A DNA stretch of 63,113 bases, taken from Polyangia bacterium. Its GTDB lineage: Bacteria; Myxococcota_A; Polyangia; HGW-17. The notes below the pieces were generated by a model. That model worked only from the letters and a program-made list of their open reading frames with translations. It had not been told where the DNA came from and searched no databases. Positions within the stretch are counted from its first letter, which is position 1. Each line of letters begins with the position of its first letter. The position numbers were made by a program, and so were the translations under genes. The DNA is taken from assembly GCA_041686345.1 (NCBI GenBank), contig JAWLEA010000005.1:1-63113 (forward strand), given 5' to 3'. This document shows, piece after piece, positions 2,325-63,068 of the stretch.

Positions 2325-2334
2325 AGCTCCTTTC

Positions 2335-9839: not shown

Positions 9840-10001
9840 GTTCCCGGCCCAAAAAGGAAGGTCATCGACTGAACGCGGAATTTTACACCATCAACTTTGT
9901 CGTAACTGCTTGATATAATGGCAACTATGTCGGTGCAGTTATTCCGCGCATCTCAATCCAATTTCTTCACCAGTCAATAACACCACTTCTGGGATGGGAA
10001 C
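9840..10001 (-). mobile_element. MITE-like element, copy 2 (full, 162 bp)
   Basis: GTTCCCGGCCCA...TGGGATGGGAAC; flanks TAACCA / TAACTA. Confidence 0.9.
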
Positions 10002-10004
10002 TAA

Positions 10005-11942
10005 CTAGATATCAAGAGCTATTAACTGATTATTTTTTTTATGGATAAATTGTTGTTCTTTTCCTTCGAAATAATACCTCAATACGGCATCAGTGCCGGA
10101 AGCCCTGATTTCAAACCAGCAATTTTCAAATTCGATAAAAGTTCCGTCACCGGCCCAAAAACAATCTTTTACTTCGGGAAAAGAGCTGTCTCCTGTTTTT
10201 TCCCTGAGAATTCTGGTAGTTTCCTCGGATTTCAGAGATGAAAGGTTTTTGAAAAAAGCAACAACTTTTTCTTTCTTACGATTTCCCCGAAGTTTTGCCT
10301 TATTTCGTTTTTCCCCGGTAAGACTTTCATCATAAAGAACAATATCCTGTCTTTCATAGGCAATTAAATTGATTTTGTAGGATTTTATCAGATCAAGATA
10401 AAAACGGGCAAATGATTTTTCTTTTTCCAGCAAACGGGCGGCCAAAGCCAAAGTGGCCAAGCCAACCTGCATTCCGTCTTTTTCTTTGAGTCCGAGAGAA
10501 TGATTTTTCCGTTTCTCAGAAAATACTCCTTCAGCTGTACCCATGGCAGCTCCGCCACTTTCTTCACACATAATCAAAAAACGGGGATTATCTCCCAGGT
10601 TGGTTTTTTTCCCGGTTATATCCTTAAATACCAGTTCGGATTTTTGTTGACGCAACCCTTGTTGGACGTCTTTGATTAAATTGCCGAAATGTTTGAAACC
10701 AACTGGAACCAGGCAATAATTGAGTTTGGCCTTGTATTCCGCTGCTATCCTGGAGGCAATCTGAAAAATAGAGCGAGAAGTTGGATAAGTTTCAGCTGCA
10801 ATCCAGTCGTATTTCTCAAGTTTCCCGGTTTCGGCCAGTTCTCTTACCCTCATTGCAGTCAACATAAAATATATTTGGTTTGGTTTGAAATATACTGCAA
10901 TTCTTTTATTGTCCAGCATTTCCGTTTCCAGACCATTGGCTTTTGCTTTCTTTTCCAAAGCAATTGGAGCCACCGTAACAATATTAAATCTGTCTCCATC
11001 GGGATCCCAGATAAAAACAAGATTGGCCTTGTTTTTACGTAACAACTTTTGAGCCCCAATATTTTTATATACTTGCCATTTGCCGGGATCCACTCCGTGG
11101 TTGACTCCGTTTAAAATTCCAATATCGTAAAAGCTCTGATTTTCTTTTTCGTGGATAAAAGAAATCCCTTTTTTATCCAGGGGAAAAGAAAGATGTGAAA
11201 AAATTTTACGAGCTGTGGCTCCCATGGAACCACCTTCGGTGGAAATAGTTACTTTCAATTCTTTGTTCAGAGCTTCACGGATTTTATCAAAAGATTCGGG
11301 CATGATAATATGATTCAAAAAATCCACATAAGCATCCAGGGGTTTAAAATCTTTTTTTATGAGTGTTGAATCCGACGGATGGAGTTGGATCTCAAGGGAT
11401 TCTTCAAGGGCTTTTTTTACCAGCATTTTAACTTCCAATGCAATATCACCGGCAAGTGAAAGAAGCTGCATTCCTTTACTGTCCATAGGTTTCCACCCAC
11501 CTTTATAATTAGGGGAATGGGAAGCAGTGAAGTTTTCTCCGCCACCGAGTTCATGATAAAAAGTGCCAAAAGAAGACAGCCAGATTGGAGTTGTCTTGAT
11601 ACCATCTCCCCTCAAATGAACTGTTATCCCGGCAGCTGCATATATCCGGGAAAAAAGATCAATGAATTTGTCAGTATGAGGTCTTACCTCGCCTCCAATA
11701 TGCAATGATTCTATTTTGTTCTTTTTGCAAACATTAGCTCTGGCGATGGCAATAAGGGAAGCTGTAACTGCATTGAAAGGAACATCGACAGCAAAAAAAT
11801 CTTCAGGATCAAGTAAATCCCTGTAGCCGGCTGTTCCCAATTTGAAATCCTCAGCCCATTTTTTAAGTGAATATTTTTTACATATTTCCTTGTCAATTAT
11901 AATTGTTTCAGGTTTCTGAGCAAAAGGGGTAAACAATGTCAT
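10005..11942 (-). CDS. Phosphoglucomutase/phosphomannomutase family protein
   Basis: LGTAGYR, TASH phosphoserine motif, DPDGDR metal loop, EESGG, RASGT. Confidence 0.88.
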   Translation of the reverse strand: MTLFTPFAQKPETIIIDKEICKKYSLKKWAEDFKLGTAGYRDLLDPEDFFAVDVPFNAVTASLIAIARANVCKKNKIESLHIGGEVRPHTDKFIDLFSRIYAAAGITVHLRGDGIKTTPIWLSSFGTFYHELGGGENFTASHSPNYKGGWKPMDSKGMQLLSLAGDIALEVKMLVKKALEESLEIQLHPSDSTLIKKDFKPLDAYVDFLNHIIMPESFDKIREALNKELKVTISTEGGSMGATARKIFSHLSFPLDKKGISFIHEKENQSFYDIGILNGVNHGVDPGKWQVYKNIGAQKLLRKNKANLVFIWDPDGDRFNIVTVAPIALEKKAKANGLETEMLDNKRIAVYFKPNQIYFMLTAMRVRELAETGKLEKYDWIAAETYPTSRSIFQIASRIAAEYKAKLNYCLVPVGFKHFGNLIKDVQQGLRQQKSELVFKDITGKKTNLGDNPRFLIMCEESGGAAMGTAEGVFSEKRKNHSLGLKEKDGMQVGLATLALAARLLEKEKSFARFYLDLIKSYKINLIAYERQDIVLYDESLTGEKRNKAKLRGNRKKEKVVAFFKNLSSLKSEETTRILREKTGDSSFPEVKDCFWAGDGTFIEFENCWFEIRASGTDAVLRYYFEGKEQQFIHKKNNQLIALDI

Positions 11943-12260: not shown

Positions 12261-12620
12261 ATGATTAAAATGTATTTCAAAACCACAATAAAAATAATAT
12301 TTATCGGCTTATTTCTGGTTGGTCTCAGTTGCCAACAGAATAAACAGGAAAAAATTGAAGACAAAAAACAAAAGCTTTATCAATTAATCAAGACAAAAAA
12401 CAAAACTGAAAACAAAACTGTCAATCATAAAAATAAAAATTCAACAGAGGGACAACCTAATCCGCAACGTGGTTCTACAGGAATTGGCAATTATGATTTC
12501 GGAACTGTTCCAAACTCCAATATAAAATTCCGCCCCCCTGTCAATTCCGCCACTGATTTGAAAAAACAGAGAGAAACAAACAAAAAAAACCATTCTGGGA
12601 TGGACAAGAAGTCGGATTGA
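12261..12620 (+). CDS. Hypothetical lipoprotein; last codons and stop lie in element copy 3
   Basis: Hydrophobic signal with GLSC lipobox, Lys/Asn-rich body; start uncertain (12261 or 12270). Confidence 0.55.
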   Translation: MIKMYFKTTIKIIFIGLFLVGLSCQQNKQEKIEDKKQKLYQLIKTKNKTENKTVNHKNKNSTEGQPNPQRGSTGIGNYDFGTVPNSNIKFRPPVNSATDLKKQRETNKKNHSGMDKKSD

Positions 12621-12733
12621 GATGCGCGGAATAACTGCGCAGACATAGTTGACACTATTTCAAGAAGTTATGACAAAGCTGATTAATTCAATTTCCGTCG
12701 CCAGACAATGACATCCATGTTTGGGATGGGAAC
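12606..12733 (+). mobile_element. MITE-like element, copy 3 (one end missing)
   Basis: GATTGAGATGCGCGGAATAAC...TTTGGGATGGGAAC then TACTTA; between convergent genes. Confidence 0.85.
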
Positions 12734-14196
12734 TACTTAACTAGGCCGGTTTTGGAATTGAATTCTTCAATTGCCTTGTCCCACTTTGGAACAACTGAAA
12801 AAATCCTGTCCCAGAATTCACGCTCCCAAAGAGTTTCCAAATCTCTGACATCTTTTGCCTGTTGTTCAACCCAGGTAAAATATTTGAGATTATGCAATTT
12901 CTTTCTATCCCAATAAGTTAATTCCTCGAAATTATCAAAACCCTGCATTCTCAAGCAACCTTCACTGCATTTCAAAGCTTCTTCTCTGGTGTATTTGCCC
13001 TTGTCCTGACTGAACTCAACCAGTCTGGAACGATACATATCAGCAGAATCTGTAAATACAGTGTAAATAACATCATTACTGTCCATCTCGAAGAATTTAG
13101 CAGTTTTGACAGCTGCGAGCAGATTGGCGATACTTGAAATTCCAAGGAGATGCAATTGGTCTACCAATTCTTTTTTGACTCCCTGCTCCTGGAGAACTTT
13201 CTTGCCTGACTCTTCATTGAAAAGACGAAGAAGCCTCATGGTGTCCTCATCGTCAATGGCTGCAACGGCATCGGTATTTCTGGTGTTATGAATCCAGGGA
13301 ACATGCTTGTCGCCGATTCCTTCAATTCGATGTGCTCCAAAGCCGTTTCTCAAAAGTGTAGGACATTGCAATGCTTCTGAAGCTATTGTCATCATGTTGG
13401 GAAATTTTTTCTTGAGATAATCTCCGGCAGCTATTGTTCCAGCACTGCCTGTAGCACTAACATAAGCAGCAAGTCTTGATTTTTCATCTTTTACTTCTGG
13501 CCAGATTTCTTCAAAGGCATTGCCGGTAACTTCGTAGTGGAAAATTGCATTGCCAAATTCATCAAACTGATTGAAAATTACCGCACTGTCATCTGTATTG
13601 CGAATTTCCCAGCATTTATCATAAATTTCTTTTACATTGGATTCGGAACCTGGAGTAGCTATAACTTCAGACCCGATTTCCCGCAGCCAGTCAAAGCGTT
13701 CCTGACTCATTTCCTCGGGAAGAATTGCAACTGGTGTACAAGCCAGAAGCGCACAGTCAAAAGCTCCACCTCGGCAATAGTTTCCGGTGGAAGGCCAAAT
13801 CGCCCGATGTGTCGTAGGATCAAACTCTCCGGTAATCAATCTGGGAACCAAACAACCAAAGGCTGCACCAACTTTATGAGCACCGGTGGGAAACCATTTT
13901 CCAACCAAACCAACGATTTTAGCATCAACTCCACTCAATTCGGGGGGAATTTCAATGTAATTTACTCCACCAAAAAGTCCGGTTTTTATATCATTTTTCC
14001 AGGAAATTCTGAATAGATTGCGTGAATCCACATCCCAGAGACCTATTTCAGGCAATTGTTTTTTTATTTTTTCCGGAATTTTTTCGGGATTTTTTAATTG
14101 TTCAAAAGTGGGAATAAGAATATTTCTTTCCCTGCATCTTTTAACTGTATTTTCCAAAATAGCATGATTAAATTTTAATTCGACAGGATTGTACAT
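12733..14196 (-). CDS. Fold-type II PLP-dependent enzyme (cysteine synthase/Trp synthase beta superfamily)
   Basis: PTGAHKVG (PLP Lys), STGNY, ATGSAGT, HRIEGIG, GISS; start at MYNP with AGGAG RBS. Confidence 0.85.
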   Translation of the reverse strand: MYNPVELKFNHAILENTVKRCRERNILIPTFEQLKNPEKIPEKIKKQLPEIGLWDVDSRNLFRISWKNDIKTGLFGGVNYIEIPPELSGVDAKIVGLVGKWFPTGAHKVGAAFGCLVPRLITGEFDPTTHRAIWPSTGNYCRGGAFDCALLACTPVAILPEEMSQERFDWLREIGSEVIATPGSESNVKEIYDKCWEIRNTDDSAVIFNQFDEFGNAIFHYEVTGNAFEEIWPEVKDEKSRLAAYVSATGSAGTIAAGDYLKKKFPNMMTIASEALQCPTLLRNGFGAHRIEGIGDKHVPWIHNTRNTDAVAAIDDEDTMRLLRLFNEESGKKVLQEQGVKKELVDQLHLLGISSIANLLAAVKTAKFFEMDSNDVIYTVFTDSADMYRSRLVEFSQDKGKYTREEALKCSEGCLRMQGFDNFEELTYWDRKKLHNLKYFTWVEQQAKDVRDLETLWEREFWDRIFSVVPKWDKAIEEFNSKTGLVK

Positions 14197-17975: not shown

Positions 17976-18012
17976 GTTCCCATCCCAATAACCCCCATAC
18001 TGGGATGGGAAC
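17976..18012. mobile_element. Minimal 37-bp derivative of the element (both termini joined), copy 4
   Basis: GTTCCCATCCCA-ATAACCCCCATAC-TGGGATGGGAAC; flanks TAGTCA / CAGTTA. Confidence 0.85.
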
Positions 18013-18030: not shown

Positions 18031-20133
18031 ATGAAACAACTTTGTTACCTTATTTTTTTCCTCTTCATTCAATTTACCGGCAGTAGCTGTGAAGATACAG
18101 TCGTCTACGACGAACCGGTATGTGGAAACGGCAAAATCGAAGAGGGAGAAGAATGTGATGACGGCAACAACAGTGAAGAAGATTTGTGTGACAACAACTG
18201 CAAACTCATTTTAACCGAAGATTGTACCAATGGACTGGACGATGACAATAACGGCTGGATTGACTGCATGGATCCGGCTTGTTTTGGCAGCGAACACTGT
18301 ACCAATGAAATTTGCCACAATGGATATGATGATGACGATGACGGTTTGATCGATTGCCAGGATCCCGATTGTGTCCAAGCTGGCAATTGCACCATCAATG
18401 AAATCTGCGATAACGGAATAGATGATAATGCCAACGGCAATATCGATTGTGAAGACAGCTCCTGCTTTGATCATCCAGCCTGTGGAAATTGCGATTACAA
18501 TCAGGATATATTGTTTCCTGCCCCCGACCAATCTTCCATACTTGATGCCACTGAATTAATTCACAACTTCAACTATTTCTGCCTGGAATCATCCAAAAAA
18601 AGCTGGATTACCCGCTTGCAACTTGATCAGCCTGTATCCCTGGAAATTACCCTGGAAAAAGTCAGCGATGCCACCGATTTTGTTCTGGCTCTAAGCAGAG
18701 AAGAAGAGCCCGGAACAAGCTGCGGTCTGGATGACTTGTATTGCTATACTTATTCCAGTCCCGATTCCACTTCTTTGGCCACCTTGCAACTCATTCCGCC
18801 AGGAACCTATCGTTTTGCTTTCAATCCCGGATCTTACAACGGCAAAGTTTTTCTAAACTATGGCGAACCAAAACTGGAAAATTGCACAGATGGATTTGAC
18901 AATGATGATGACGGATTGGTGGATTGCGAAGATCCGGACTGTATCGATCTGCCCGTCTGCAAGGAAGAAATCTGCGACAACAATATCGACGACGACGGTG
19001 ACGGACTGGTAGACTGCGAAGACCCGGACTGTGAAGTTTTCTGCGCCCCGCCGGAACAATGTGACAATAACATTGATGACGATCTTGATGGAAAAATCGA
19101 CTGCGGAGACTCGGACTGCATTGGTGATCCCGCTTGCCAAACCACTTCCTGTATCATTTACGAAAATATCGGATCACTCAACCGGGGCAGTTATACAACT
19201 TCCAACTATGATACAACCATAGCTGACAATAGTTTTTCAACCAGTTGCGGAGGAACAGGTCCCGACTGGGCAATTCAGTTCGAACTTGCTTCGTACTCCA
19301 ACCTGTTTATCCATCACACTCAAACAGGTATGCATTCCCTGGCTCTTGCAACCCAGACCAAAGAAGGAGAAACCTGTCAACAGGGTGAACTGCAGTGTTT
19401 TACCTCTGCCGGGCTGAATCTTCCCCAAAGTATCACTCTTCACGATCTCCCTCCTGCCACTTATTTTCTTCTTCTTGATACAGAAAGCCAAGATGGCTCG
19501 GGAATTGGCGAAGTGGAACTCCAGGTTCATGATCCAAATGCCGAAATCTGCAATAACGATCAGGATGACGATGAAGACGGAATGGTGGATTGTGATGACA
19601 GCGAATGCCAGCATCTTTCGATCTGTTCCGGGGAAACAAATTGTCACAACTCCCATGATGACGACAATGATGGCTGGATTGACTGCCAGGATCCCGACTG
19701 TATGTTCCAACCGGGTTGCAACACCACCAGTTGTATTCCCGAACATTTTGCCGGCTATCTTGATAAAGACTATCCCCTTGCTTTTTTTGCTGATCTGGAA
19801 GAAGGTGAAACGGATCTCTTGCAACCTTGCGGTTCTTCACAAGCTACCACAGCTAAAACGTATTCCTTCTATCTCAATGAAACCGGCAAAATCAGAATAC
19901 GCGTAATCCCCCAGAATTATGCTGATCCTGTCGTTTCCCTGGCCACACCTGCCGGTGCCGGCAGCCAATGTGCGGATGCCATTCATCTATGTACCAGCAT
20001 GCCTGCTCCGGGGTTGTCTTCAACAATAATATCCTCCCTCTCCCTGCCTGCAGGCGGCCCTTATTATCTGCTTGTTTCTCCCTATGTGGCGGGAGATTCC
20101 GGCACAGCTCAAATTATTGTTTACCTGGAATAA
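18031..20133 (+). CDS. Cys/Asp-rich modular surface (lipo)protein
   Basis: Signal peptide with GSSC; one CGNG..EECDDGN repeat, about 8 EICDNxxDDDxDGxxDCxDxDC repeats, three related non-repeat domains. Confidence 0.85.
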   Translation: MKQLCYLIFFLFIQFTGSSCEDTVVYDEPVCGNGKIEEGEECDDGNNSEEDLCDNNCKLILTEDCTNGLDDDNNGWIDCMDPACFGSEHCTNEICHNGYDDDDDGLIDCQDPDCVQAGNCTINEICDNGIDDNANGNIDCEDSSCFDHPACGNCDYNQDILFPAPDQSSILDATELIHNFNYFCLESSKKSWITRLQLDQPVSLEITLEKVSDATDFVLALSREEEPGTSCGLDDLYCYTYSSPDSTSLATLQLIPPGTYRFAFNPGSYNGKVFLNYGEPKLENCTDGFDNDDDGLVDCEDPDCIDLPVCKEEICDNNIDDDGDGLVDCEDPDCEVFCAPPEQCDNNIDDDLDGKIDCGDSDCIGDPACQTTSCIIYENIGSLNRGSYTTSNYDTTIADNSFSTSCGGTGPDWAIQFELASYSNLFIHHTQTGMHSLALATQTKEGETCQQGELQCFTSAGLNLPQSITLHDLPPATYFLLLDTESQDGSGIGEVELQVHDPNAEICNNDQDDDEDGMVDCDDSECQHLSICSGETNCHNSHDDDNDGWIDCQDPDCMFQPGCNTTSCIPEHFAGYLDKDYPLAFFADLEEGETDLLQPCGSSQATTAKTYSFYLNETGKIRIRVIPQNYADPVVSLATPAGAGSQCADAIHLCTSMPAPGLSSTIISSLSLPAGGPYYLLVSPYVAGDSGTAQIIVYLE

Positions 20134-32047: not shown

Positions 32048-32244
32048 TTCCATTTGATTTGGTTTTCCCTTCGATCAATCTTCCCTGTCAACAGTTCTTT
32101 TCCATAATCGAAATCCTCTTTGTCATAATTTACTGATCATACAATGAATAAAAGATAAATTCAAAAACCTTCAAAAAAAGATGTTGAATAATAACCATCT
32201 ATTTTGTAAGTTGAGATGATATTTTTTTAATCATTTACTAGGTA

Positions 32245-32406
32245 GTTTCCATCCCAAAAAGGAAGGTCATCGCCTGAATGCGGAATTTCACCTCATCTGC
32301 TTTGTCGTAACTGCTTGAAATAGTGTCAACTATGTCGGTGAAGTTATTCCGCACATCTGAGGCAAACTTCTACCCCAGCCGAAAACACCACTTCTGGGAT
32401 AGGAAC
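32245..32406 (-). mobile_element. MITE-like element, copy 5 (full, 162 bp)
   Basis: Perfect TAGGTA direct repeat on both sides (32239-32244, 32407-32412). Confidence 0.92.
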
Positions 32407-32576
32407 TAGGTAGTTTCCGTCCAAAAATTTGTTTTTTTAATTAATTTAAACTATCTGATGAGCTGGAATAAAATAATATTTTTCTGGTTTTAATCAAACA
32501 GTTATCTTTACTATTTCCCATTTGATGCAGGTAAACTTTATGGGAACGGCAATTTTCCTGGATACGGAGTTTCATT

Positions 32577-35500
32577 TTGAATAAGATTGAAAATTTCAAA
32601 TTGTTAAAAAGAATTGGAAAAGGGGGAATGGCAGAAGTCTATCTTGCCAAGGCAGATTACAACGGTCTCAAAAAGATAGTTGCTCTCAAAAAAATACTTC
32701 AACCCCTTTCATCCAATGATCATTTCCGGGAAACATTCAGGCATGAAGCCGGCCTCTCAATGGAACTGAATCATCCCAATGCTGTTCAAGTTTTTGAATA
32801 CGGGCAAACTGCCGATGGAAAACATCTTTACATGATCATGGAATTCATCAATGGTGTCGATTTGATGAATCTGATGAAAACCATGAAAAAGCAAAATCAA
32901 ACAATTGAACCGGGAATAGCTGTCTTCATAATCAGTGAAGCACTCAAAGGACTTGATTATGCCCATCGACTTATAGGCAGTGATGGTCAACCCCTGGAAC
33001 TGGTACACAGAGATGTAAGTCCTCAAAACATCCTTCTTTCTTTTGAAGGTGCCGTCAAAGTCACCGACTTCGGAATTGCCAAAGCCCTCAACAAAAAAGA
33101 AGAAGAAGAAGGAGTTCTCAGGGGAAAAATTCATTATATGTCCCCAGAACAAGCTTATGCCAAACCTCTTGATAAAAGATCAGATATCTTTTCAACTGGT
33201 TTAATTCTGTATGAAATGTTGACGGGCACAAATCCATATAAACAATTCAAAGGTACTCAAGCTCTGGAAAAAGCTAAAAAGGCCGAAATAAAACCACCAT
33301 CCATGTTGATTGATGTTCCAATTCAACTGGAAAAAATCATTCAAAAAGCGCTTTCTCCTCAAAAAGAAAACCGTTATCAAAATGCAAGGGAGATGCAAAA
33401 CGACCTGTCCTTGTACCTGCATAAATTGCCGGTGCTCTATGACTCCAACAAATTAACATTCATTCTCGATCAGACCTTTTCAGATAAATCCAAAATCAAA
33501 CTTGCTGGACTTGACAGTCCCACCATAAATAAAAAATCTGACAGTAATGCTGATTTCGGTTTTACCAACGAAACACATACAGGAACTTTTTCCATCAAAG
33601 AAAAGAAAAATCTTGTTTCCATGGTTATCCAGGTTGGAGGTGTAAAAAAAGCACTGCAACGACATGATCGCGACAAGGTTGAAGGCGAACTGGAAAACTT
33701 CATGAATATGGTGGAATTTATTATGATCAAAGATAAGGAAAAGAGGTATCGTTCCCGTCGCCTTACTGACAATAAATTGTTGGTAGTTCGTGGTATTCCT
33801 TATACCGGAGAATATGATGAAACCGAACTTCTCATGGATGCCCACAAAATAAAAAGAGATTTTAAAGTTTATCAGGAAGAAGTTCCTGAATTCAACATTG
33901 GAATCGGGGTAGATCGCATCAAGGTCAGCATTGTTTTCAACAAATCTTCAATACATTGGGATATCCTGGATAATTCAGAAAGAAAACTCTCTCTCCTTGC
34001 CCGCAGTAACCCCAATGAAATCATGGTATCGGCTCAAATTCACTCTGCAGCCAGATACAATTGGAAATTTGAAAAAATAAAAAATGATTTTGGTCTTTAT
34101 AATTATAAGTTAATCAATCTCAAAAGTGATTACGAAATAAAAAAGACCAGAATGACCAACAATCTTGTGGGTCGTTCATTTGCACTTGGTCGAATGCAGC
34201 GTGAATTTCAAGAATCGGTCAAAAAATCTCGTTTTGTCATCCTGCCCATAATCGGTGATATGGGAGTAGGCAAAACTACTCTGATCCAAAATTTTATTCA
34301 GGGCATCAAGAATAAAAACAGGGTTTTCAGTACTGAAGCCAAGCCATTCAACAGTTTTTCCCCGTTTTCACTTATTATCTCTCTGCTGAAAGATATTTCA
34401 CGTACCCGCGGGGGTTCTGGAAAAGACTTTACCAAGATTATTTACAAGGAATTGAGAAACCTGTTGAGTGAAAAAACTCTGGATGAAATTGTCAAAACCC
34501 TGGAAATGCTCCTTGATTCAGAAAAAGAAATTTCACAGGGACACAACGTCGGAGCTCTGGTTGCCACAGCATTGCGCAGAATTCTGAAAGGGTTTTCAAA
34601 TCAAGGACCTGTAATCGCTATCTTTGAAGATCTGCAATGGGCCGATAAAAAGAGTCAATCAGTTCTCAATTCACTTTTTGAAAATGAAAAATTGAAAGGC
34701 AGGGTCTTCATCATCCTGTCAGTAAGAGATGCTGATGATTACTCCAACACCTTTAATGACAAAAATTCTGTCAAACTGCCCATTAAATTAACTTATTTTG
34801 ATCCTGAACTTACCCGCAAATTTGTGGAGAGGAGATTCGAAAATCCCCAAAAAGCAGCACCTATGATTGACAGAATAGTTAAAATGTCAGAGGGAAACCC
34901 CTTTTTCATAAATGAGCTTTTGTCTTTTGTCGTATCTAAAGGCTTTTGTGAGCCAACTGAGAGCAATTCCGAGAAACTTGTTCTCACCAGGAATATTTCA
35001 GCCAATTTCTCACTGGAAACTTCCCCCACCATCGATGGAATTATCTCCAGTAAACTTGATAATCTCTCTCCCGAAAACAGAAGAATCATTCGTCTTGCTT
35101 CAATTGCCGGCAGAACTTTCTACAAAAAACAATTGCAACAACTGGTTGAAGAGGATGTAGAACAATTTCTGGAAGAATTTGAAAAAAGAAATTTCATCAA
35201 ACAGATGAAAGAACCGGACAGATATACCTTTGTTCAAAAAATAATGAGAGACTTCGCCTATTCTGGGCTTGCCGAAGATGATAAACGCCATGGTCACCTG
35301 CTCATGGCTGAATATCTGGAACAAAATGAACAAAAAAATTATAATGCTCCCATAATAGCCATGCATTATGAAAAGGGTGGCAATCACGAAAAAGCAATAG
35401 AATATTATTTACAAGCAGCTCATCATTCCAAAAATCTGGCTTCCAACAATGAAGCTCTTAACCATTACCAGAAAATTCTGGAACTGGTGGGCAAAAACAA

Positions 35501-36797
35501 AGAAGTTAAATTCCATGCCCATAAAGATATGGTCAATATCTACCGCAACCTTGGTTTACGCAATAAACAACTTGTGGAAATCAAAAATATGGAGACCCTC
35601 GCTCTCGAAGAAAACAAAACCAAGTGGCTAAGTGAAGCCCAATGCAGAAAACTGGCTTATTTTCAGGATATTGGCGAACCTCGTAAAACCATAAATCTTT
35701 TTGACGAAGTAATCACTAACGCAACTAATGCCCAGGATGAAAAAACTCAGATTTATGCCTATTATATTCTGGCCAGAGCTTTGGTTGATCTCGGTGAAAT
35801 AGATAAATCATTTGAAGCCGTCGGCAAAGGGATGGAAATAATAAACAAAAATCCCAATATTAAATATCTCAAGGGCAATCTTCTTCATATCAAAGCCAAC
35901 ACCTACCACTACAGCGGTGAAGATGAAAAGGCCATTGCCGCTTATGAAAAAGCCCTTAAGATTTTCAGGGAAAACAACAAAAGAACTGAAGAAGCAACTA
36001 TTTTAATGAACTTGGGCTTTCTCTCTTTTGTCAGGGGTAATTACGAAAAAGCCCTGTCCCTGTACAAAAAAGCTTACCAGATTGACATAAGCAAAGGAGA
36101 CAGACTTTATACAGGGGTTAAACTATCCAATATTGCTCAAACTCAAATCGCCCTGGGTAATTATTCTCAAGCCCGAAAAGTATTGCAACAGGCCAAAAGA
36201 TTGTGTCTTGCCACTAAAGACAGTGGTGCCCTCAGCGATACCTACTTTACAATTGCCCTGCTCAAACTCCGTACCGGCAATCCAGCAGCTTCCATGCAGT
36301 TTATCACCGAAGGACTCCGCATTGCCAGAGAAGCAAACAGTAAAATTGATGAAGTAAGAGGCTTGCAACTATGGGCCCAATGCCAATTAGAAGATCTGGA
36401 GGGTAATTATTCAGAAGCCCTCTTAAAATCTGAACAACTTATCAAACTTGCCAAAAATTCCAAATTGCCCAACAGTTATATCCACGGACTTCGGTTGAAG
36501 GCTTTAACTCTGTTGAAAATGGGCGAAAACAAAGAAGCCCTCCCTTTTTCCACCAAGGCTGTATCTTTGACAGTTGTCAGCAATGTCGAAAACAAGGAAG
36601 TTATTTATCATACCCATGCCAGAATCATGCTTTCTCTTCAAAAGAAATATTGGGCTCAGAGATTTTTGAAAAAAGCTGTAGATATAGTTAAAGTCAAAAA
36701 CAATCTGCTTTCCTCAGAACAGGCAAAACAAATCTATCTTTCCGTTTATCCAGCCCGAAATATACTGGAAGATTTTGAAAACTATCAAAATAGTTAG
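32577..36797 (+). CDS. Ser/Thr kinase - AAA/STAND ATPase - TPR multidomain protein
   Basis: GKGGMAEV, HRDVSPQN, DFG, YMSPEQ; GDMGVGKT, FEDLQWAD, GNPFF; C-terminal TPRs; TTG start with GGAG. Confidence 0.9.
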   Translation: MNKIENFKLLKRIGKGGMAEVYLAKADYNGLKKIVALKKILQPLSSNDHFRETFRHEAGLSMELNHPNAVQVFEYGQTADGKHLYMIMEFINGVDLMNLMKTMKKQNQTIEPGIAVFIISEALKGLDYAHRLIGSDGQPLELVHRDVSPQNILLSFEGAVKVTDFGIAKALNKKEEEEGVLRGKIHYMSPEQAYAKPLDKRSDIFSTGLILYEMLTGTNPYKQFKGTQALEKAKKAEIKPPSMLIDVPIQLEKIIQKALSPQKENRYQNAREMQNDLSLYLHKLPVLYDSNKLTFILDQTFSDKSKIKLAGLDSPTINKKSDSNADFGFTNETHTGTFSIKEKKNLVSMVIQVGGVKKALQRHDRDKVEGELENFMNMVEFIMIKDKEKRYRSRRLTDNKLLVVRGIPYTGEYDETELLMDAHKIKRDFKVYQEEVPEFNIGIGVDRIKVSIVFNKSSIHWDILDNSERKLSLLARSNPNEIMVSAQIHSAARYNWKFEKIKNDFGLYNYKLINLKSDYEIKKTRMTNNLVGRSFALGRMQREFQESVKKSRFVILPIIGDMGVGKTTLIQNFIQGIKNKNRVFSTEAKPFNSFSPFSLIISLLKDISRTRGGSGKDFTKIIYKELRNLLSEKTLDEIVKTLEMLLDSEKEISQGHNVGALVATALRRILKGFSNQGPVIAIFEDLQWADKKSQSVLNSLFENEKLKGRVFIILSVRDADDYSNTFNDKNSVKLPIKLTYFDPELTRKFVERRFENPQKAAPMIDRIVKMSEGNPFFINELLSFVVSKGFCEPTESNSEKLVLTRNISANFSLETSPTIDGIISSKLDNLSPENRRIIRLASIAGRTFYKKQLQQLVEEDVEQFLEEFEKRNFIKQMKEPDRYTFVQKIMRDFAYSGLAEDDKRHGHLLMAEYLEQNEQKNYNAPIIAMHYEKGGNHEKAIEYYLQAAHHSKNLASNNEALNHYQKILELVGKNKEVKFHAHKDMVNIYRNLGLRNKQLVEIKNMETLALEENKTKWLSEAQCRKLAYFQDIGEPRKTINLFDEVITNATNAQDEKTQIYAYYILARALVDLGEIDKSFEAVGKGMEIINKNPNIKYLKGNLLHIKANTYHYSGEDEKAIAAYEKALKIFRENNKRTEEATILMNLGFLSFVRGNYEKALSLYKKAYQIDISKGDRLYTGVKLSNIAQTQIALGNYSQARKVLQQAKRLCLATKDSGALSDTYFTIALLKLRTGNPAASMQFITEGLRIAREANSKIDEVRGLQLWAQCQLEDLEGNYSEALLKSEQLIKLAKNSKLPNSYIHGLRLKALTLLKMGENKEALPFSTKAVSLTVVSNVENKEVIYHTHARIMLSLQKKYWAQRFLKKAVDIVKVKNNLLSSEQAKQIYLSVYPARNILEDFENYQNS

Positions 36798-36957
36798 TTC
36801 CCATCCCAGAATGGGGGTTATTAACTGAATGAGAAGTTTATCTCAGATGCGCGGAATAACTTCGCAGACATAGTTGGCACTATTTCAAGAAGTTATGACA
36901 AAGCTGATTAATTCAAATTCCGTCGCTAGGCGATCACCTTCTTTTTGGGACGGGAGT
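36797..36957 (+). mobile_element. MITE-like element, copy 6 (full length)
   Basis: TAGTTA then GTTCCCATCCCA...; its first G completes the TAG stop of the kinase gene. Confidence 0.9.
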
Positions 36958-37309: not shown

Positions 37310-37461
37310 CAGAGTGGAGATTTTTGACTGAATAAGAAATTTGTCTCAAATGCACCAAATAGCTTCGCAGACATAGTTGACACTATTTCAAAAAGTTATG
37401 ATAAACAAATGAGATATAAATGACCTGTTCAGGCGATGAATTTCCTGTTTGGGACAGGAAC
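37310..37461 (+). mobile_element. MITE-like element, copy 7 (degenerate, one terminus lost)
   Basis: CTTCGCAGACATAGTTGACACTATTTCAA core; ends GGGACAGGAAC then TAAATA. Confidence 0.8.
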
Positions 37462-37649: not shown

Positions 37650-40220
37650 ATGAAATTTTCAACCTATATACTGATCGCTTTTACTTTTTTCTTTTCCAGT
37701 TGTGTTTCCATCAAAGAAGATGAGGAAACTACATCAGAACTTTGTGGCAATGGCATTGTCGATCCCGGTGAAGAATGTGATGACGGCAACCTGATCAACC
37801 ATGACGGCTGCAATGAATTTTGCATGATTGAATCCTTTTGCGGCAACGGAATTGTTGAGCCTGGTGAAGAATGTGACGACGACAACCAAAAAGACGGGGA
37901 CGGCTGTGATCACAACTGCATGGTAGAAACCGGATGTGGTAACGGTATCCTGGAACTTGGCGAAGAATGCGATGATGACAACATTGACACCGGTGACGGA
38001 TGCGACGGCGAATGTAAAATGGAAAATGCAGAAGCTGTTTGTGGAAATAGCATCTGGGAACTCGGTGAAGGTTGCGATGATGGCAATACCGAAAACGGGG
38101 ACGGTTGCAGTTCAAATTGTGAACGAGAAGACGGCTGTGGTGACGGCACCAAGTCCGAATCTGAACAATGTGACGATGGTAACAATGTCAGCGGTGACGG
38201 TTGCTCCAAAGATTGTCAGGTAGAATTTATCTGTGGCGACGATAATTGCGACCCCGACAATGGAGAAACTTGTGAACTTTGCCCCGAAGACTGTTGTCCT
38301 GACTGTGGCAACGGAATTCTGGAGGAAGGCGAAGAATGTGACGACGGCAACAACACCTCTGATGACGGTTGTTCACGGGGTTGTCTTGACGAAGACGGAG
38401 AAGCTGTTTGTGGAAATGGCATCTGGGAACTCGGTGAAGAATGTGACGACGGTAATTTAACTGCCCATGACGGCTGTTCACCTGAATGTGTCCGTGAATA
38501 TGTCTGTGGAGATGATGAATGTACCGTAGCTGAAGGTGAAAGCTGTCGAAATTGTCAGAAGGATTGCTGTCCTGCCTGTGGCAATGGAGTTCAGCAAACC
38601 GGTGAAATTTGCGATACCGACGATTTGAACGACAGAACCTGCGAAATGTTTGGTTATGACGGCGGCGATCTTTCCTGTACCGACTGGTGTACTTACGATT
38701 TCTCCACCTGCACTGGAACCGGTCCGGAATGTGGAAACGACGTCAAAGAATACGGCGAAGAATGCGACGGAGACGACATGGACAACCAGGATTGTTCAAC
38801 TCTGGGCTACCTCGGTGGTCTTGCTTTTTGCAACACTGACTGCACCATCAATAAAACCGGTTGCACCGATATGATCAGGTATTTCTTCGAAGACTTTGAT
38901 GAACTTCTCCCTCCCAACAACTGGCAATTCGTCTATCCCTGGGAATGGGGCACTCCCTCCAGCGTCGGTCCTTCCAATGCTTTCAGCGGTAATTCCTGTG
39001 TGGCTACTGTCATCGAGGGAGACACTCCTTCTGATCTTGATTATTCAACTAATTCCATGACAACACCACCCATCGATCTCAGTAACGCCGACAACCCGGT
39101 TCTCTTTTTCTGGGCTTGGGCAGATCTCACTGACTCAACCTACAATGATGATGCCTGGCATGTGGAATATTCCCTTGACAACGGCTCCAGTTGGACCTTG
39201 ATCACCGATGTTGATCCACAATATACTTCTACTGAGGGAAGTTCAGAAGGCTGGGAATATTTCGAAGGATCTGATTCCTGGAATCCATATACAGCCAATC
39301 TTGCATCTCTGGCCGGTGAAACCAATGTTCTGCTTCGTTTCTCGGCTTATTTCGATCATTCATCTTACACCGGAGAGTCCGGTATTTATATAGATGATCT
39401 CATGGTGGTTGAAGGGGCTCATATTCCCATCTCCATAACCACACCCGATGATCTGGGCAAAGCAGTGGTTGACACCCCCTACAACACTAGTATCAACGTC
39501 TGGGGTGGCAGTGGCAACTTTACCTACTCCTTCATTGGAGATTCTCCTTCCTGGTTATCTCTCAACTCTGCCACCGGCGAACTTTCAGGTACTCCTTCCG
39601 CAGCCGACATAGACTCCTATCAATTCACAATCCAGGTTGCAGATGCAGATAATCCCACCAATACCGACCAGAAATCATTTAGCCTAAATGTTCTTGATGC
39701 CCTGCTTTTCGTTAATTTTGAAAGTGGAACTCCTTCCGGCTGGAGCACCAGCGGTGGTGTATGGGAAATAGGAAGCGCCGGAAGCAGTGGACCTTCCTCC
39801 TGTTTCAGCGGAAGCACTTGTGTTGGCACCAATTTCAACGGAGATTATGGGGACAATTTGAGCTGGGGTGATCATTGCGTAACCAGTGGCGATATCGATC
39901 TTTCCGCAGCAACTTCAGCTACCCTTGAATTTATGGGATATCTCGACTCTGAAAATGGCTGGGACGGTTGCCATGTCGAGGCCAACGATGGCAGCGGCTG
40001 GACTCTGCTCGATCAGGTCACTCCCCCTTATAGTGCCGGTGACTGTGGCAGTCAAGACTGTTGGGAAGGAAGTGCTCCCTCGTGGCAAACTTATTCTGTA
40101 GATCTGAGCAGCCAGGTTGGCCAAACTATCCAGGTACGCTGGTGTTTCTACTCAGATAGTTCTGTTAACGACTATCCTGGATTCTTCTTTGACGATGTAA
40201 TTGTTGTTTTCAGTAATTGA
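37650..40220 (+). CDS. Myxococcus-type Cys-rich repeat lipoprotein with Ig-like and two jelly-roll/MAM-like domains
   Basis: FSSC lipobox; repeated CGNG..EECDDGN..DGC..C; PSWLSLNSATGELSGTP putative Ig motif; two WExG..GP....SG..C...IDLS domains. Confidence 0.88.
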   Translation: MKFSTYILIAFTFFFSSCVSIKEDEETTSELCGNGIVDPGEECDDGNLINHDGCNEFCMIESFCGNGIVEPGEECDDDNQKDGDGCDHNCMVETGCGNGILELGEECDDDNIDTGDGCDGECKMENAEAVCGNSIWELGEGCDDGNTENGDGCSSNCEREDGCGDGTKSESEQCDDGNNVSGDGCSKDCQVEFICGDDNCDPDNGETCELCPEDCCPDCGNGILEEGEECDDGNNTSDDGCSRGCLDEDGEAVCGNGIWELGEECDDGNLTAHDGCSPECVREYVCGDDECTVAEGESCRNCQKDCCPACGNGVQQTGEICDTDDLNDRTCEMFGYDGGDLSCTDWCTYDFSTCTGTGPECGNDVKEYGEECDGDDMDNQDCSTLGYLGGLAFCNTDCTINKTGCTDMIRYFFEDFDELLPPNNWQFVYPWEWGTPSSVGPSNAFSGNSCVATVIEGDTPSDLDYSTNSMTTPPIDLSNADNPVLFFWAWADLTDSTYNDDAWHVEYSLDNGSSWTLITDVDPQYTSTEGSSEGWEYFEGSDSWNPYTANLASLAGETNVLLRFSAYFDHSSYTGESGIYIDDLMVVEGAHIPISITTPDDLGKAVVDTPYNTSINVWGGSGNFTYSFIGDSPSWLSLNSATGELSGTPSAADIDSYQFTIQVADADNPTNTDQKSFSLNVLDALLFVNFESGTPSGWSTSGGVWEIGSAGSSGPSSCFSGSTCVGTNFNGDYGDNLSWGDHCVTSGDIDLSAATSATLEFMGYLDSENGWDGCHVEANDGSGWTLLDQVTPPYSAGDCGSQDCWEGSAPSWQTYSVDLSSQVGQTIQVRWCFYSDSSVNDYPGFFFDDVIVVFSN

Positions 40221-54599: not shown

Positions 54600-55019
54600 A
54601 TGTACAAACTAATTTTAGTATTTGTTTTGCAACTGACAATTTTTACAATCGGCTGCAAGAAACCACCTTGTGAAGTTGCTTTGAAGAAAGCTGAAACTTG
54701 TCTCAAAAAAGAAAACAAAAAACCAAATACAAATCACGCTCCAATTTTTTTGCAATTATGCAAAAAAAACAAGAGCAAGTTTGATAAATGCAATAAAATC
54801 AAGGAATGTACAGCATTCAGGAGTTGCATTTCCGAAGCAGCCACCAACCCTGCAGCTGTCAAAGAATATAATAAATTGTATAATCTGAATTCCGAAGAAG
54901 ATAACTCGGACAAGAAAACAGAAAAAAATTCCGAAGAAGATAACTCGGACAAGAAAACAGAAAAAAATTCCGAAGAAGATAACTCGGGCAAGAAAACAGA
55001 AAAAAACAACTCCGAATAA
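54600..55019 (+). CDS. Hypothetical Cys-containing lipoprotein with repeat tail
   Basis: GGAG RBS, IGC lipobox, 6 further Cys, (NSEEDNSDKKTEK)x3. Confidence 0.7.
   Translation: MYKLILVFVLQLTIFTIGCKKPPCEVALKKAETCLKKENKKPNTNHAPIFLQLCKKNKSKFDKCNKIKECTAFRSCISEAATNPAAVKEYNKLYNLNSEEDNSDKKTEKNSEEDNSDKKTEKNSEEDNSGKKTEKNNSE
54888..55004 (+). repeat. 39-bp coding tandem repeat, 3 copies
   Basis: AATTCCGAAGAAGATAACTCGG(A/G)CAAGAAAACAGAAAAA three times with a single mismatch. Confidence 0.95.
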
Positions 55020-56924: not shown

Positions 56925-59423
56925 ATGAAAGCCAAATGTCCCCATTGTGGAAAAGAAATAGATGCAAAATCTTCTTTTTGTGGAAAATGTGGCAAAAAAT
57001 TAAAACAAACAATTATCGGAACTCCTACACCTATTTCCGATCCGAATTTATTCAAAAAAAATTCATCTGCGAAATTTTCCCGAATAAAAAGTAAGAAACT
57101 GGAAGATCTTTCAGCTAGTGATACTCTGTTCAATTCTCCCGACATTCTTCTGGGAAAAATGGTGGGAGAATACAAAGTCACTAATATTATCGGCAAGGGC
57201 GGAATGGGATGGGTATTTTCCGGTATTCATCCTGTCATCGAAAAAAAAGTTGCCATTAAAGTTCTAAAATCAAAATATTCCAAAGACGAAAAAATTGTCT
57301 CATCCTTCATGAATGAGGCTAAAGCAGTTAACTCCATCGGCAGCAAAAAAATCATCGATATCTTTGCCTTCGGCCAGCTTGAATCCGGTAATTTCTATTT
57401 CATCATGGAATTACTTGAAGGTTCATCCCTCGCTGAATTTCTCAAGAAAAAAGGAAAACTGAAAGCTTATGACGCTTATAAAATAATTACCCCCATTCTT
57501 GATGCTTTACAAGCTGCCCACGATAAAAAAATTATTCACCGGGATCTTAAACCTGAAAACATCTATATTTGTAAAGACGAAGACAAGGAATATACTGTCA
57601 AGCTTCTTGATTTCGGTATTGCCAAATTTAAAGAAGACAGTTTTTCATCCATGCATGAAACTCAGGCAGGCGTTATCAAAGGCTCGCCCTTATATATGTC
57701 TCCGGAACAATGCAAGGGTGAAGAAATTACAGTTCAATCTGATATTTATTCTTTTGGAATTATCCTCTATAAAATTTTTACTGGAAAAGTTCCTTTCAGA
57801 GGCAAAAATGCTTTAAGCGTAATTACAGCCCATCTCAAGGACGAACCGGAACCACCAAGCAAACATGCTGATATTCCAAAAGAACTGGATAACATTATTC
57901 TCAACTGTCTCAAAAAAGATCCCCAGGAAAGAATAGCCTCCATCCTTGATCTTAAAGACATGTTGATTCCCGTGTTGCAAAATATGGCACTGGCTCCAGT
58001 CAAAAAAAAGAACAGATCGGGCATTCTGGTTTTTTTACTTGCTTGCCTTGTAGTAGCCGGCTCCATTTTTTTTGTTTTAAAACCCTGGAAATATTGGAAT
58101 AAAAATAAAAATAAAAATAGTGCAGTTTTTGAAACAGTTGAATTATCAATTATTTCAGCCCATCCTACTTTGCTCAACCAAGAGTTTGAAGCCGGTTTCA
58201 ACAAATGGATGCTTAAAAATTACAAAAAACAGGTCAAAATAAAATGGTTTTCCTTCAGAGACGAGCTGGCTTCACTCCAGACCAATATTAAATCCTCAAT
58301 TAAGAACAACAAATTAACCAAGTATGATGTTATCTTTGGAGGAGGCGAACAAATTCATCACCGTCTTGCTTCACCCAAGTGCCTTACTATCGACGGCAAA
58401 AATTATCGATGCAGCGAAATAATCAATCTGGAACAGGAAATTAAAGATAAAATTCCTTCCTCCCTTCATGGAGTCAAACTCTATGATGAAAAAGGATACT
58501 GGTATGGTACTGCTCTTTCCGGATTTGGTTTTTTCTGCCACAAGGGCCGTCTCAAACAAGCGGGTCTTGAACTGCCTGAAACTTGGAAAGAACTGGCAAA
58601 ACCTCAATTCTTTCAAAAGTTGATCAGTGCAGATCCATCGAAAAGCAGTTCCACCTATATGATCTATGAAATCATCATGCAATCAATGGGTTGGGAACGG
58701 GGCCTCAAAACGATAATATCTCTGGGGGCCAACATCCATGGAGATTTTTTGAAAAGCTCCAAAATAGTTCTTCACAAACTTCTCGACAATAAAAAAGCGG
58801 TTTGCGGACTTTCCATCGATTTTCTTTTCCATATGCAAAATTCTCAACTCGACGATAATATTGCCAAGCAAATGAAGTTTATCCTTCCTGAAAAAACAGC
58901 TGTTTTCACTTCAGATCCAATTTCAATTGTTAAAAATGCCCGCCATCTTTTTTTGGCTGAAAAATTTATAAAATATGTCCTCACCGAGGGTCAATTTCTT
59001 TTTATCAAACCGGTGGGTCATCCAAAAGGACCTGAACAGGAAATTCTCCCCAGATTGCCAATTGTACCAGATCTCTACAAAGAATCAGAACCCGTTAATT
59101 TTTACGTAAATCCCTTTACTCAAAAATCAAAACTGCAATTTGATTCCAAACAATCACTGAAAAGAAAAAAACTGTTCAGATTGCTTTTGAAAGCCGCTCT
59201 GATAGAAAGTCACAAACCCCAAGTGAATAGTTGGGACTACATGATCAAAAACAAAAAATTAAAAATTTGGCAAAAAGATAAAAACATTGTTATCTCCAAA
59301 AAGACATTCAACAAAAAATTAAAAGGTGCTGAAAACATGAATCGGCTTGCCTGGAACGAACTTCAATTCAAGTGGATTGAGATGTTCCATAAATATTACA
59401 AAAATCTTAGAGGAACAAAATAA
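56925..59423 (+). CDS. Zinc ribbon - Ser/Thr kinase - TM - periplasmic solute-binding domain fusion
   Basis: CPHC..CGKC; HRDLKPEN, DFG, YMSPEQ; single TM; DVIFGGG, PETWKEL, ADPSKSSS, AEKFIKYVL. Confidence 0.88.
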   Translation: MKAKCPHCGKEIDAKSSFCGKCGKKLKQTIIGTPTPISDPNLFKKNSSAKFSRIKSKKLEDLSASDTLFNSPDILLGKMVGEYKVTNIIGKGGMGWVFSGIHPVIEKKVAIKVLKSKYSKDEKIVSSFMNEAKAVNSIGSKKIIDIFAFGQLESGNFYFIMELLEGSSLAEFLKKKGKLKAYDAYKIITPILDALQAAHDKKIIHRDLKPENIYICKDEDKEYTVKLLDFGIAKFKEDSFSSMHETQAGVIKGSPLYMSPEQCKGEEITVQSDIYSFGIILYKIFTGKVPFRGKNALSVITAHLKDEPEPPSKHADIPKELDNIILNCLKKDPQERIASILDLKDMLIPVLQNMALAPVKKKNRSGILVFLLACLVVAGSIFFVLKPWKYWNKNKNKNSAVFETVELSIISAHPTLLNQEFEAGFNKWMLKNYKKQVKIKWFSFRDELASLQTNIKSSIKNNKLTKYDVIFGGGEQIHHRLASPKCLTIDGKNYRCSEIINLEQEIKDKIPSSLHGVKLYDEKGYWYGTALSGFGFFCHKGRLKQAGLELPETWKELAKPQFFQKLISADPSKSSSTYMIYEIIMQSMGWERGLKTIISLGANIHGDFLKSSKIVLHKLLDNKKAVCGLSIDFLFHMQNSQLDDNIAKQMKFILPEKTAVFTSDPISIVKNARHLFLAEKFIKYVLTEGQFLFIKPVGHPKGPEQEILPRLPIVPDLYKESEPVNFYVNPFTQKSKLQFDSKQSLKRKKLFRLLLKAALIESHKPQVNSWDYMIKNKKLKIWQKDKNIVISKKTFNKKLKGAENMNRLAWNELQFKWIEMFHKYYKNLRGTK

Positions 59424-60688: not shown

Positions 60689-60849
60689 TTCCCATCCCAG
60701 AAGTGGTGTTTTTGGCTGGTGAAGAAATTGGATTGAGATGCACGGAATAACTTCGCAGACATAGTTGTCACTATTTCAAGAAGTTATGACAAAACTGATA
60801 AAACCAAATTCCGTCGCCAGACGATGACCTTCTTTTTTGAAACAGGAAC
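60688..60849 (+). mobile_element. MITE-like element, copy 8 (full, 162 bp)
   Basis: Flanks TAACTA / TAAATA; first G completes the TAG stop of the kinase gene. Confidence 0.9.
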
Positions 60850-60863
60850 TAAATAAAACTATT

Positions 60864-61754
60864 ATGAAACAAAACTCTAGAGATACCGGCGAATACATTC
60901 CGGAAATATCAATAATCATCCCTGCCTATAACGAAGCTGCCAGTATAAAACAGGTTCTGACAAAGTTGCAGAAAGTGCTGAATCAGGCTGATTTCACCTA
61001 TGAAATCCTGGTAATAAATGACGGTTCCACCGATGGCACTGGCGATATCCTGGCCAATCTCAATGTCAGAACCATTAACCACGAAATTAACAGAGGTTAT
61101 GGTGCTTCACTGAAAACAGGAGTCCGATCCATCCAGTCTGAATTTTTCGTGATCATAGATGCCGATGGCACTTATCCCGAAGAAGAACTCCTCAATATCA
61201 CGGCTTATCGACATGATTACGATATGATCATCGCAGCAAGAACTGGGGAAAATGTCAATATTCCTCTTATTCGCAAACCGGCAAAAAAATTCATTACCTG
61301 GCTTGCTTCCTATGTTGCCAACCGCAGAATTCCTGATCTTAATTCAGGTTTAAGAATCATGAGGCGAGAAGTCGTCCTTAAATACATAAAACTGCTTCCT
61401 GACGGATTTTCCTTTACTTCTACAATTTCACTGGCCATGCTGGTTGGTGGCTTCAGGGTAAAATATATACCCATCAATTATAAACACCGTGAAGGCACCT
61501 CCAAAATTCGTCCTTTCTATGATACCATCAACTTTATTCTGCTTATTGTGAGAACAATAACCTATTTCAGACCTCTCAGAGTTTTTGTTCCCTTTTCTTT
61601 GTTTCTTTTTCTCACAGGAATTTTTGTTCTTTTTTTCAGCGGACTGTTTTTTGAACAGATTATGGATTCTACCTCAACTATTTTCATTATGACTGCGGTA
61701 AACATCTTTGGACTTGGGCTATTGGCTGAATTGATAATCAGAAGATCTGACTGA
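60864..61754 (+). CDS. Glycosyltransferase family 2 (polyprenol-phosphate sugar synthase-like) with 2 C-terminal TMs
   Basis: IIPAYNE, NDGSTD, GYGAS, DADG, DLNSG, R.G.SKI; the TTG start at 60837 in the ORF track lies inside the element. Confidence 0.9.
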   Translation: MKQNSRDTGEYIPEISIIIPAYNEAASIKQVLTKLQKVLNQADFTYEILVINDGSTDGTGDILANLNVRTINHEINRGYGASLKTGVRSIQSEFFVIIDADGTYPEEELLNITAYRHDYDMIIAARTGENVNIPLIRKPAKKFITWLASYVANRRIPDLNSGLRIMRREVVLKYIKLLPDGFSFTSTISLAMLVGGFRVKYIPINYKHREGTSKIRPFYDTINFILLIVRTITYFRPLRVFVPFSLFLFLTGIFVLFFSGLFFEQIMDSTSTIFIMTAVNIFGLGLLAELIIRRSD

Positions 61755-63064: not shown

Positions 63065-63068
63065 TAGA

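Follow-up and report, generated by a model that had tools for sequence, protein, structure and literature searches.

A 162-bp MITE family in a Polyangia bacterium, most likely moved in trans by a single ISNCY-family insertion sequence

Introduction

Nezha of Anabaena and Nostoc and Correia of Neisseria are short elements with terminal inverted repeats, a target duplication and a stable hairpin. They have no transposase, occupy many intergenic positions, and can be seen as filled and empty sites when close relatives are compared (Delihas 2011; PMC3184786). The repeat family described here resembles them in all these respects but differs in its transposase family and in its 6-bp TANNTA target. 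With roughly one copy every 7 kb, the family takes up 1.9% of the source assembly, a density that is probably comparable to that of Correia and not higher. On the side of the autonomous elements, the clade of the parent insertion sequence (IS) described below is probably the ISDol1 group of ISNCY in ISfinder. Members of this group are 1.6-1.9 kb long with 6-7-bp repeats, and the parent IS fits this description.

In the sections of Delihas (2011; PMC3184786) that bear on such elements, classical MITEs are said to share only their termini with the parent IS. The same sections describe bcr1 of the Bacillus cereus group, a mobile-looking repeat of about 155 bp with 5-bp direct repeats, which is transcribed and whose structure is maintained by base-pair compensatory changes. 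Our family is similar to bcr1 in size and in its compensatory changes, found here in 16 of 62 pairs, a likeness at the level of description. The direct repeats are 5 bp in bcr1 and 6 bp here, and transcription is stated in those sections for bcr1 only.

Here we report the copies of this family in one contig, their distribution in the source assembly and in a sister species, and an IS with the same ends. We conclude, with a probability of about 0.88, that this is a 162-bp MITE family moved in trans, most likely by a single ISNCY-family IS.

Results

The window, the whole stretch of 63,113 nucleotides that we analysed, is the entire contig C92 of the source assembly (G000; 3.64 Mb in 265 contigs). 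G000 is a fragmented metagenome bin, 88.9% complete, and the copy counts given below are therefore approximate. The copies in the window are as follows, with the relation of some of them to the sister species G001.

32245 to 32406, plus strand: focal full-length MITE copy, 162 bp, with termini GTTTCCATCCCA / TGGGATAGGAAC; matches nhmmer model positions 1-161 with 164.6 bits; absent at the orthologous G001 site
32239 to 32244, no strand: left target-site duplication TAGGTA of the focal copy, read from the sequence
32407 to 32412, no strand: right target-site duplication TAGGTA of the focal copy, read from the sequence
32413 to 32430, plus strand: left-terminus remnant of an older copy, GTTTCCGTCC..., abutting the right duplication of the focal copy; also present in G001
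1 to 107, plus strand: right portion (model 57-161) of a copy interrupted by the contig start, followed by TAGTTA; orthologous copy in G001:C228
9840 to 10001, plus strand: full copy with flanks TAACCA / TAACTA; the G001:C107 site is empty with a single TAAATA
12593 to 12733, minus strand: truncated copy (model 1-141) with TACTTA outside its intact end
17976 to 18012, no strand: 37-bp mini copy of two termini only, with flanks TAGTCA / CAGTTA
36797 to 36957, minus strand: full copy; orthologous in G001, truncated there
37310 to 37461, minus strand: copy truncated at one end (model 1-152) with TAAATA outside its intact end
60688 to 60849, minus strand: full copy with flanks TAACTA / TAAATA; the G001:C210 site is empty with a single AAAATA
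62978 to 63064, plus strand: left half-copy (model 1-87), interrupted at the hairpin tip
63069 to 63113, plus strand: start of a diverged-subfamily copy with terminus GTTCTCGTTTCA, nested in the 62978-63064 copy and cut by the contig end

The original prediction, made from the sequence of the window, listed about ten related copies in the 63 kb, and every one of them was recovered by a repeat search and by nhmmer. The repeat search returned them as direct and inverted families with 70-87% identity. The consensus 12-mer terminus occurs 18 times in the window with up to two mismatches, as opposed to 5.9±2.1 times in 100 shuffles, the largest shuffled count being 11. The prediction further inferred that this density could mean hundreds of copies per genome. 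A profile built from six window copies, iterated once and run with nhmmer on the whole of G000 gave 960 hits, the near-palindromic sequence making every copy score on both strands. After overlaps were collapsed, 544 non-overlapping loci remained, of which 262 are about full length, and merging loci at most 12 bp apart gives 487 clusters. The inference of hundreds of copies is thus correct. The predicted length of 161-162 bp holds with a correction: the element is 162 bp long, and truncated, half or nested forms make up about half of the 544 loci. The copies are scattered over the assembly, at a median distance of 2.6 kb. Fifty-two loci sit at contig ends, and 50 of the 530 contig ends of G000 are inside a copy, including both ends of the window contig.

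In 221 full copies, conservation of the 12-bp termini GTTCCCATCCCA / TGGGATGGGAAC is about 90% or higher. The termini form perfect inverted repeats, and a copy is an imperfect hairpin from end to end. The focal copy, the only one read by eye for this purpose, has stop codons in all three reverse-strand frames. Rfam gave no match at gathering score in the window and none at E up to 1 in 32150-32500; the prediction had named such a match as one that would remove the novelty.

The target duplication was analysed in the 221 full copies for which 14 nt of flank was available. The flanking hexamers are identical in 101 copies and differ by one base in 52 and by two to six bases in 68, and the next-outer hexamers are identical in none of the 221. 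TANNTA is found on both sides of 115 copies. The two hexamers agree in 92 of these, compared with 18.2±3.7 (maximum 32) in 2000 shuffles. This genome-wide check of the flanks bears out a 6-bp TANNTA duplication in which the central NN is correlated, as had been proposed from a handful of window copies. Together with the copy number, the lack of coding capacity and of an Rfam match, and the empty sites described below, the conserved termini, the correlated duplication and the 162-bp length identify the element as a MITE, the class assigned to it earlier on the basis of inverted repeats and a duplication without coding capacity. The commonest targets are TAACTA/TAGTTA, TAAATA/TATTTA and TAGATA/TATCTA. 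At exact sites without an adjoining copy, a pyrimidine precedes the target in 37 of 52 cases and a purine follows it in 41 of 52, and the target is therefore roughly Y-TA-NN-TA-R. Reading the duplication as 6 bp is a convention, because a 2- or 4-bp duplication with the TA counted in the element gives the same empty site. With perfect duplications in only 101 of 221 copies, a mean pairwise identity of 80% among the 221 and a median identity to the consensus of 88%, many copies are, by sequence divergence, old.

The repeat is present in two of the 41 genomes searched, G000 and one genome of the same genus, G001; it was found in none of 12 other genomes of the same family and in none of 27 genomes further removed. 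Syntenic DNA of G001, 81-91% identical to the window, reveals empty sites with a single hexamer, which the prediction had proposed to look for in relatives. There are four clean ones, two in each direction. At the positions of the copies 9840-10001 and 60688-60849, G001 has no copy but one hexamer each (TAAATA and AAAATA, respectively). Conversely, two copies are specific to G001. One, at C210:8496-8659, is flanked by TAAGTA on either side and corresponds to a lone GAAGTA near window position 52645; the other, at C93:6748-6923 with TAACTA on both sides, is absent near window position 25330. The focal copy is also missing in G001, where TTGATA precedes the same GTTTCC remnant as is found after the focal copy in the window. 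The copies at 1-107 and 36797-36957 are common to both genomes, the latter in truncated form in G001. Since some copies are shared and others are species-specific in both directions, the comparison indicates that the family has been active both before and after the split of the two species. These empty and filled calls leave out 12593-12733, 17976-18012 and 37310-37461, which are poorly aligned, and the stretch from 62978 to the end. The 37-bp mini copy at 17976-18012 is absent in G001:C33, in a poorly aligned region with other indels, and the 37310-37461 region is 105 bp long in G001 and 273 bp in the window, with ambiguous alignment. Elsewhere in the otherwise syntenic DNA, G001:C228:10948-12775 represents about 1.8 kb of extra sequence relative to window position 2411/2412.

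Among contigs from three public runs mapped on 59500-62000, none skips the copy at 60688-60849. In a DNA run, the summed contig depth over 60676-60843 is 1400-3100 as opposed to 5-10 in the flanks. Depth over the same interval is also high in two metatranscriptome libraries from another study, in which the right end of the copy is spanned by a 151-nt contig that matches the window exactly. These depths are not evidence of transcription.

In the search for a parent element in G000, termini sharing a duplication were paired at distances of up to 6 kb. One strong candidate was found, a 1685-bp IS at G000:C30:4912-6596 with TAGATA on both sides. It has a single intact ORF of 450 aa that matches Pfam DUF772 and DDE_Tnp_1, and its transposase matches the NCBIfam model NF033593 (ISNCY) over residues 22-439 with 404.3 bits (403.9 in the genome search) against a cut-off of 325. 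The invariant residues D148, D349 and E400 are the putative DDE residues. This is the sole NF033593-type transposase match in G000, in one copy. The window was correctly said to lack a transposase, the only match of the relevant family in G000 being on C30. An IS with the same termini around a transposase, which the prediction had proposed to search for, thus exists in G000. At its left and right ends, the MITE consensus is identical to the C30 IS for 16 and 28 nt, respectively, and we infer from these shared ends that the transposase of the IS mobilizes the MITE. The MITE core of about 118 nt has no similarity to the interior of the IS; a simple deletion within this IS copy therefore does not account for the MITE. 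A search of G001 (92% complete) gave no ISNCY transposase match, though G001 has MITE insertions of its own.

Among 8000 candidates scored, 6128 homologues of the C30 transposase were found (E up to 1e-3), the best of them 55% identical; the homologues are annotated as IS5 or ISNCY family. A contig scan with a single transposase as query gave no relative, and one with an alignment as query gave multi-copy relatives. Eight multi-copy IS sets from other phyla were aligned, seven of which gave usable ends; the boundary heuristic failed for delta_CAWIGY (an 88-bp block) and misplaced the right end of CBDCYI, and those ends were not used. The seven sets have aligned blocks of 1592-1703 bp with GT.CCC termini (one right end being the misplaced one), and 6-7-bp duplications, mostly TA..TA, are legible in five of them. 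Among the closest known elements is ISRle10 on plasmid pRL7 of Rhizobium johnstonii. The C30 protein is 43% identical over 96% of its length to transposases annotated as ISNCY or ISRle10 family, and the two elements share a similar length (1685 and 1665 bp), one ORF of about 450 aa, GT.CCC.TCC termini and a TA...TA duplication. ISRle10 has termini GTGCCCGTCCAT and a 7-bp TAGTCTA duplication, and a Sinorhizobium relative has termini GTTTCCGTCCAT and a 7-bp TAGCCTA duplication. In both, the duplication is thus TA-NNN-TA, unlike the 6-bp TANNTA here.

Because related ISs in other phyla share these termini and TA...TA duplications, the aligned ends indicate that GT.CCC termini and a TA...TA target are traits of this IS clade and are not new to the MITE. 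The prediction had recognized neither the family nor its target preference. The preference proved to be common to related ISs, while the other part stands: our search of published papers, with ISfinder and supplementary files outside its scope, found neither a description of this MITE nor any other MITE of the parent IS clade, and nothing relevant on the 12-mer termini. Literature matches to the 12-mer terminus were in papers on unrelated subjects, as judged by their titles.

Gene context was assessed with a crude ORF caller, which required an ATG start and a length of at least 100 aa and gave a coding share of 82%. None of the 262 full copies is inside an ORF of at least 100 aa, and 67 of 226 full copies lie between divergent genes, compared with 322 of 2318 background gene pairs. 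The orientation to neighbouring genes is even, with 135 copies in one direction and 132 in the other before 5' ends, and 94 and 91 after 3' ends. An ORF stop codon coincides with the edge of the duplication or element in 70 of 225 full copies (31%). The stop is made up of the first three bases of the duplication at 22 ends and of its last TA plus the first G of the element at 51 ends. The same stop position is found at 241 of 2489 free non-coding TANNTA sites, about three times more rarely than at copies, an enrichment that rests on the crude ORF caller. Window examples are the stops at 36795-36797, 60686-60688, 12733-12735 and 10005-10007. The 1406-aa kinase ORF at 32577-36797 ends on the TA of the duplication and the first G of the copy at 36797-36957, and the ORF at 59423-60688 ends in the same way on the copy at 60688-60849. 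With a duplicated target and an element that starts with G, the protein stays the same when an insertion falls on a TAA or TAG stop. Some of the cases with TA plus G may instead be tolerated truncations that shorten the tail of the gene.

The focal copy is located between the gene of a DUF7107 protein and that of the 1406-aa Ser/Thr kinase-TPR protein. The window otherwise contains housekeeping genes, including asnS, recN, ffh and mpl, and a weak match to TIGR03900 (MXAN_5808-family peptidase) below the cut-off. The regions 37650-40220 and 18031-20133 encode large, secreted-looking proteins with repeated Cys-rich DUF4215 modules, visible in the DNA as repeats of 96-105 bp and 90 bp. Ser/Thr kinase paralogues are found at 33009, 53375, 57735 and 59891. 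The TIGR03900 match, the DUF4215 repeats and the many Ser/Thr kinases are weak hints of the former Deltaproteobacteria. A perfect 39-bp tandem repeat at 54888-55006 has three copies that are 98-100% identical.

Some copies are inserted into or beside others. In the nested composites, a diverged-subfamily copy (terminus GTTCTCGTTTCA) is inserted at the hairpin tip of another copy, between its left half (model 1-87) and its other half. Such composites are found at window 62978-63113 and in G000 at C63:4750, C9:25400, C116:11208, C185:2156 and C33:18750. TGTA precedes the inner copy at several loci and a TAGA variant at others, including the window. The recurrence of the same junction at several loci suggests that the composite itself was amplified, as a unit of about 330 bp. 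Flanks abut another copy on the left in 40 and on the right in 36 of the 221 full copies. Near-full copies with exactly one duplication shared between them form 11 pairs (for example C248:16396-16892 and C9:24265-24593), and 10 of these are head-to-tail. The neighbours belong to different subfamilies in five of the seven typable pairs, and only one pair is 100% identical; given these differences in subfamily, most tandem pairs are independent insertions. A 56-to-1 count of neighbouring loci in the same orientation was rejected because parts of single elements and of nested ones are counted together in it; the orientation result is based on the 11 near-full pairs.

Mini copies of 26-46 bp consist of two termini only, and seven have perfect TANNTA duplications. 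They are found at window 17976-18012 and in G000 at C254:19778, C236:7316, C23:3150, C104:2114, C242:9264, C130:11894 and C17:2589. The mini copies are probably in-place deletions of the hairpin interior. We rejected them as proof that the termini alone transpose, because such a deletion leaves the same picture.

The consensus folds into one long hairpin of 62 pairs, with -55.3 kcal/mol for one strand and -77.7 kcal/mol for the other. The second strand folds better in 215 of the 221 copies (mean -67.0 and -50.3 kcal/mol, respectively). For the focal copy, the values are -55.6 kcal/mol on the minus strand (z -3.58) and -43.0 kcal/mol on the plus strand (z -2.18). One strand folds better because its fixed mismatches are G.U where the complementary strand has A.C; there are 1535 cells of this kind and 303 of the opposite kind. 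In 16 of the 62 pairs, two Watson-Crick types that differ on both sides are each present in at least 5% of copies, as opposed to 0-3 such pairs when the partners are slid by one to three columns. The 46 variable columns comprise 26 in 13 pairs that vary on both sides, 6 paired with an invariant partner and 14 unpaired. The structure used here was derived from the same sequences on which covariation is tested. Compensatory changes appear to keep the whole element a hairpin, the cause of which could be selection for the fold or arm-to-arm repair of the palindrome.

Discussion

Combining the census, the target duplications, the comparison with G001 and the C30 IS, we propose that the family is moved in trans. 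A DDE transposase supplied in trans would make a 6-bp staggered cut at Y-TA-NN-TA-R, and TANNTA would be duplicated when this cut is repaired. The source of this transposase would most likely be the C30 IS. The element would move by cut-and-paste or by copy-and-paste. What counts against this explanation is that only one copy of the IS was assembled and none was found in G001, which has MITE insertions of its own, that the MITE core is unrelated to the IS interior, that many copies are old and have imperfect duplications, and that no contig of the three public runs skips the copy at 60688-60849.

The alternative that survives best gives the hairpin the leading role. The element would mainly be a structured RNA or single-stranded DNA hairpin kept by selection, for example as an mRNA end-stabilizer, a terminator or a small RNA, and transposition would only spread it, as proposed for bcr1. 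The compensated pairs (16 of 62, compared with 0-3 for slid partners) and the 13 pairs varying on both sides, with 6 paired columns varying alone, are in its favour, as is the finding that the better-folding strand is the same in 215 of 221 copies. However, the covariation rests on few subfamilies (59, 52 and 35 copies), and because these three carry most of the signal, the independent events are few. Chimeric arms are common (for instance GA in 28 and TC in 12 copies at pair 17/146), and arm-to-arm repair or re-folding of the palindrome could yield the pattern without selection. Two of the fixed A.C positions stem from differences between the two ends of the IS. MITE-like contigs are abundant in two RNA libraries, but these libraries may contain DNA, and contig depth is no measure of expression. 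The even orientation to neighbouring genes (135 and 132 before 5' ends, 94 and 91 after 3' ends) also counts against this alternative. The compensatory changes of bcr1 provide a precedent, as far as the sections on bcr1 in Delihas (2011; PMC3184786) describe them. On balance, we consider this alternative unlikely. It is similarly doubtful, though conceivable, that the whole-length hairpin is selected on one strand. This DDE-type MITE would then depend on a fold of single-stranded DNA or RNA, either for its own propagation or for a benefit to the host, in the manner of REPINs or bcr1. Such a hidden strand asymmetry could also lie behind the head-to-tail landing of independent copies beside a resident copy in 10 of 11 pairs.

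A hairpin with compensatory changes over the entire element would also fit a REP/REPIN-like element moved as single-stranded DNA by a Y1 transposase (RAYT or IS200-type) that recognizes the hairpin. One weak Y1_Tnp (PF01797) match is found in G000, at C150:2572-2841 in a 341-aa open frame (25.5 bits, cut-off 23), but no copy flanks this gene, the nearest being about 4.7 kb away. Y1 transposition is not known to make a target duplication, whereas a correlated 6-bp duplication is present here, and a DDE IS with identical termini exists in the same assembly. We therefore regard movement by a Y1 transposase as very improbable.

TA abuts both termini in most copies, as it would in an IS630/Tc1-mariner-type MITE that duplicates only TA, the outer bases being a target preference. 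A 2-bp duplication of this kind needs an empty site of the form TA-NN-TA-NN-TA, but the empty sites in G001 and G000 hold a single hexamer, and they refute this reading. The central NN is moreover the same on both sides in 92 of 115 copies, and the parent transposase fits ISNCY/IS5-type models, with no IS630-type model among the matches listed. Finally, spread of a non-mobile repeat by recombination or tandem duplication, or an assembly artefact, to which the one 100% identical tandem pair (C248) and the breaking of contigs in copies could point, is refuted by dispersed copies at unrelated sites, each with its own duplication, by the clean presence and absence in G001, and by tandem neighbours that are mostly of different subfamilies.

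Mobilization of the MITE in trans by an ISNCY-family transposase is thus the reading that we retain, and the evidence requires no new mechanism. The family adds a MITE of an ISNCY/IS5-related DDE transposon to a kind of element that is already known, and is notable for its density and its covarying hairpin.

The family represents a natural MITE burst, with about 500 copies making up 1.9% of a 3.6-Mb genome in which the parent IS is still present. The clade of this IS (ISNCY, ISRle10-like) is poorly described and very common in metagenomes. Its ends and its Y-TA-N2-3-TA-R target are now defined, which helps the annotation of ISs and MITEs. The poor assembly of this lineage can be related to the family, because 50 of the 530 contig ends are in copies. 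The diverged copies provide a data set for hairpin covariation, for insertion on stop codons and for insertion beside resident copies.
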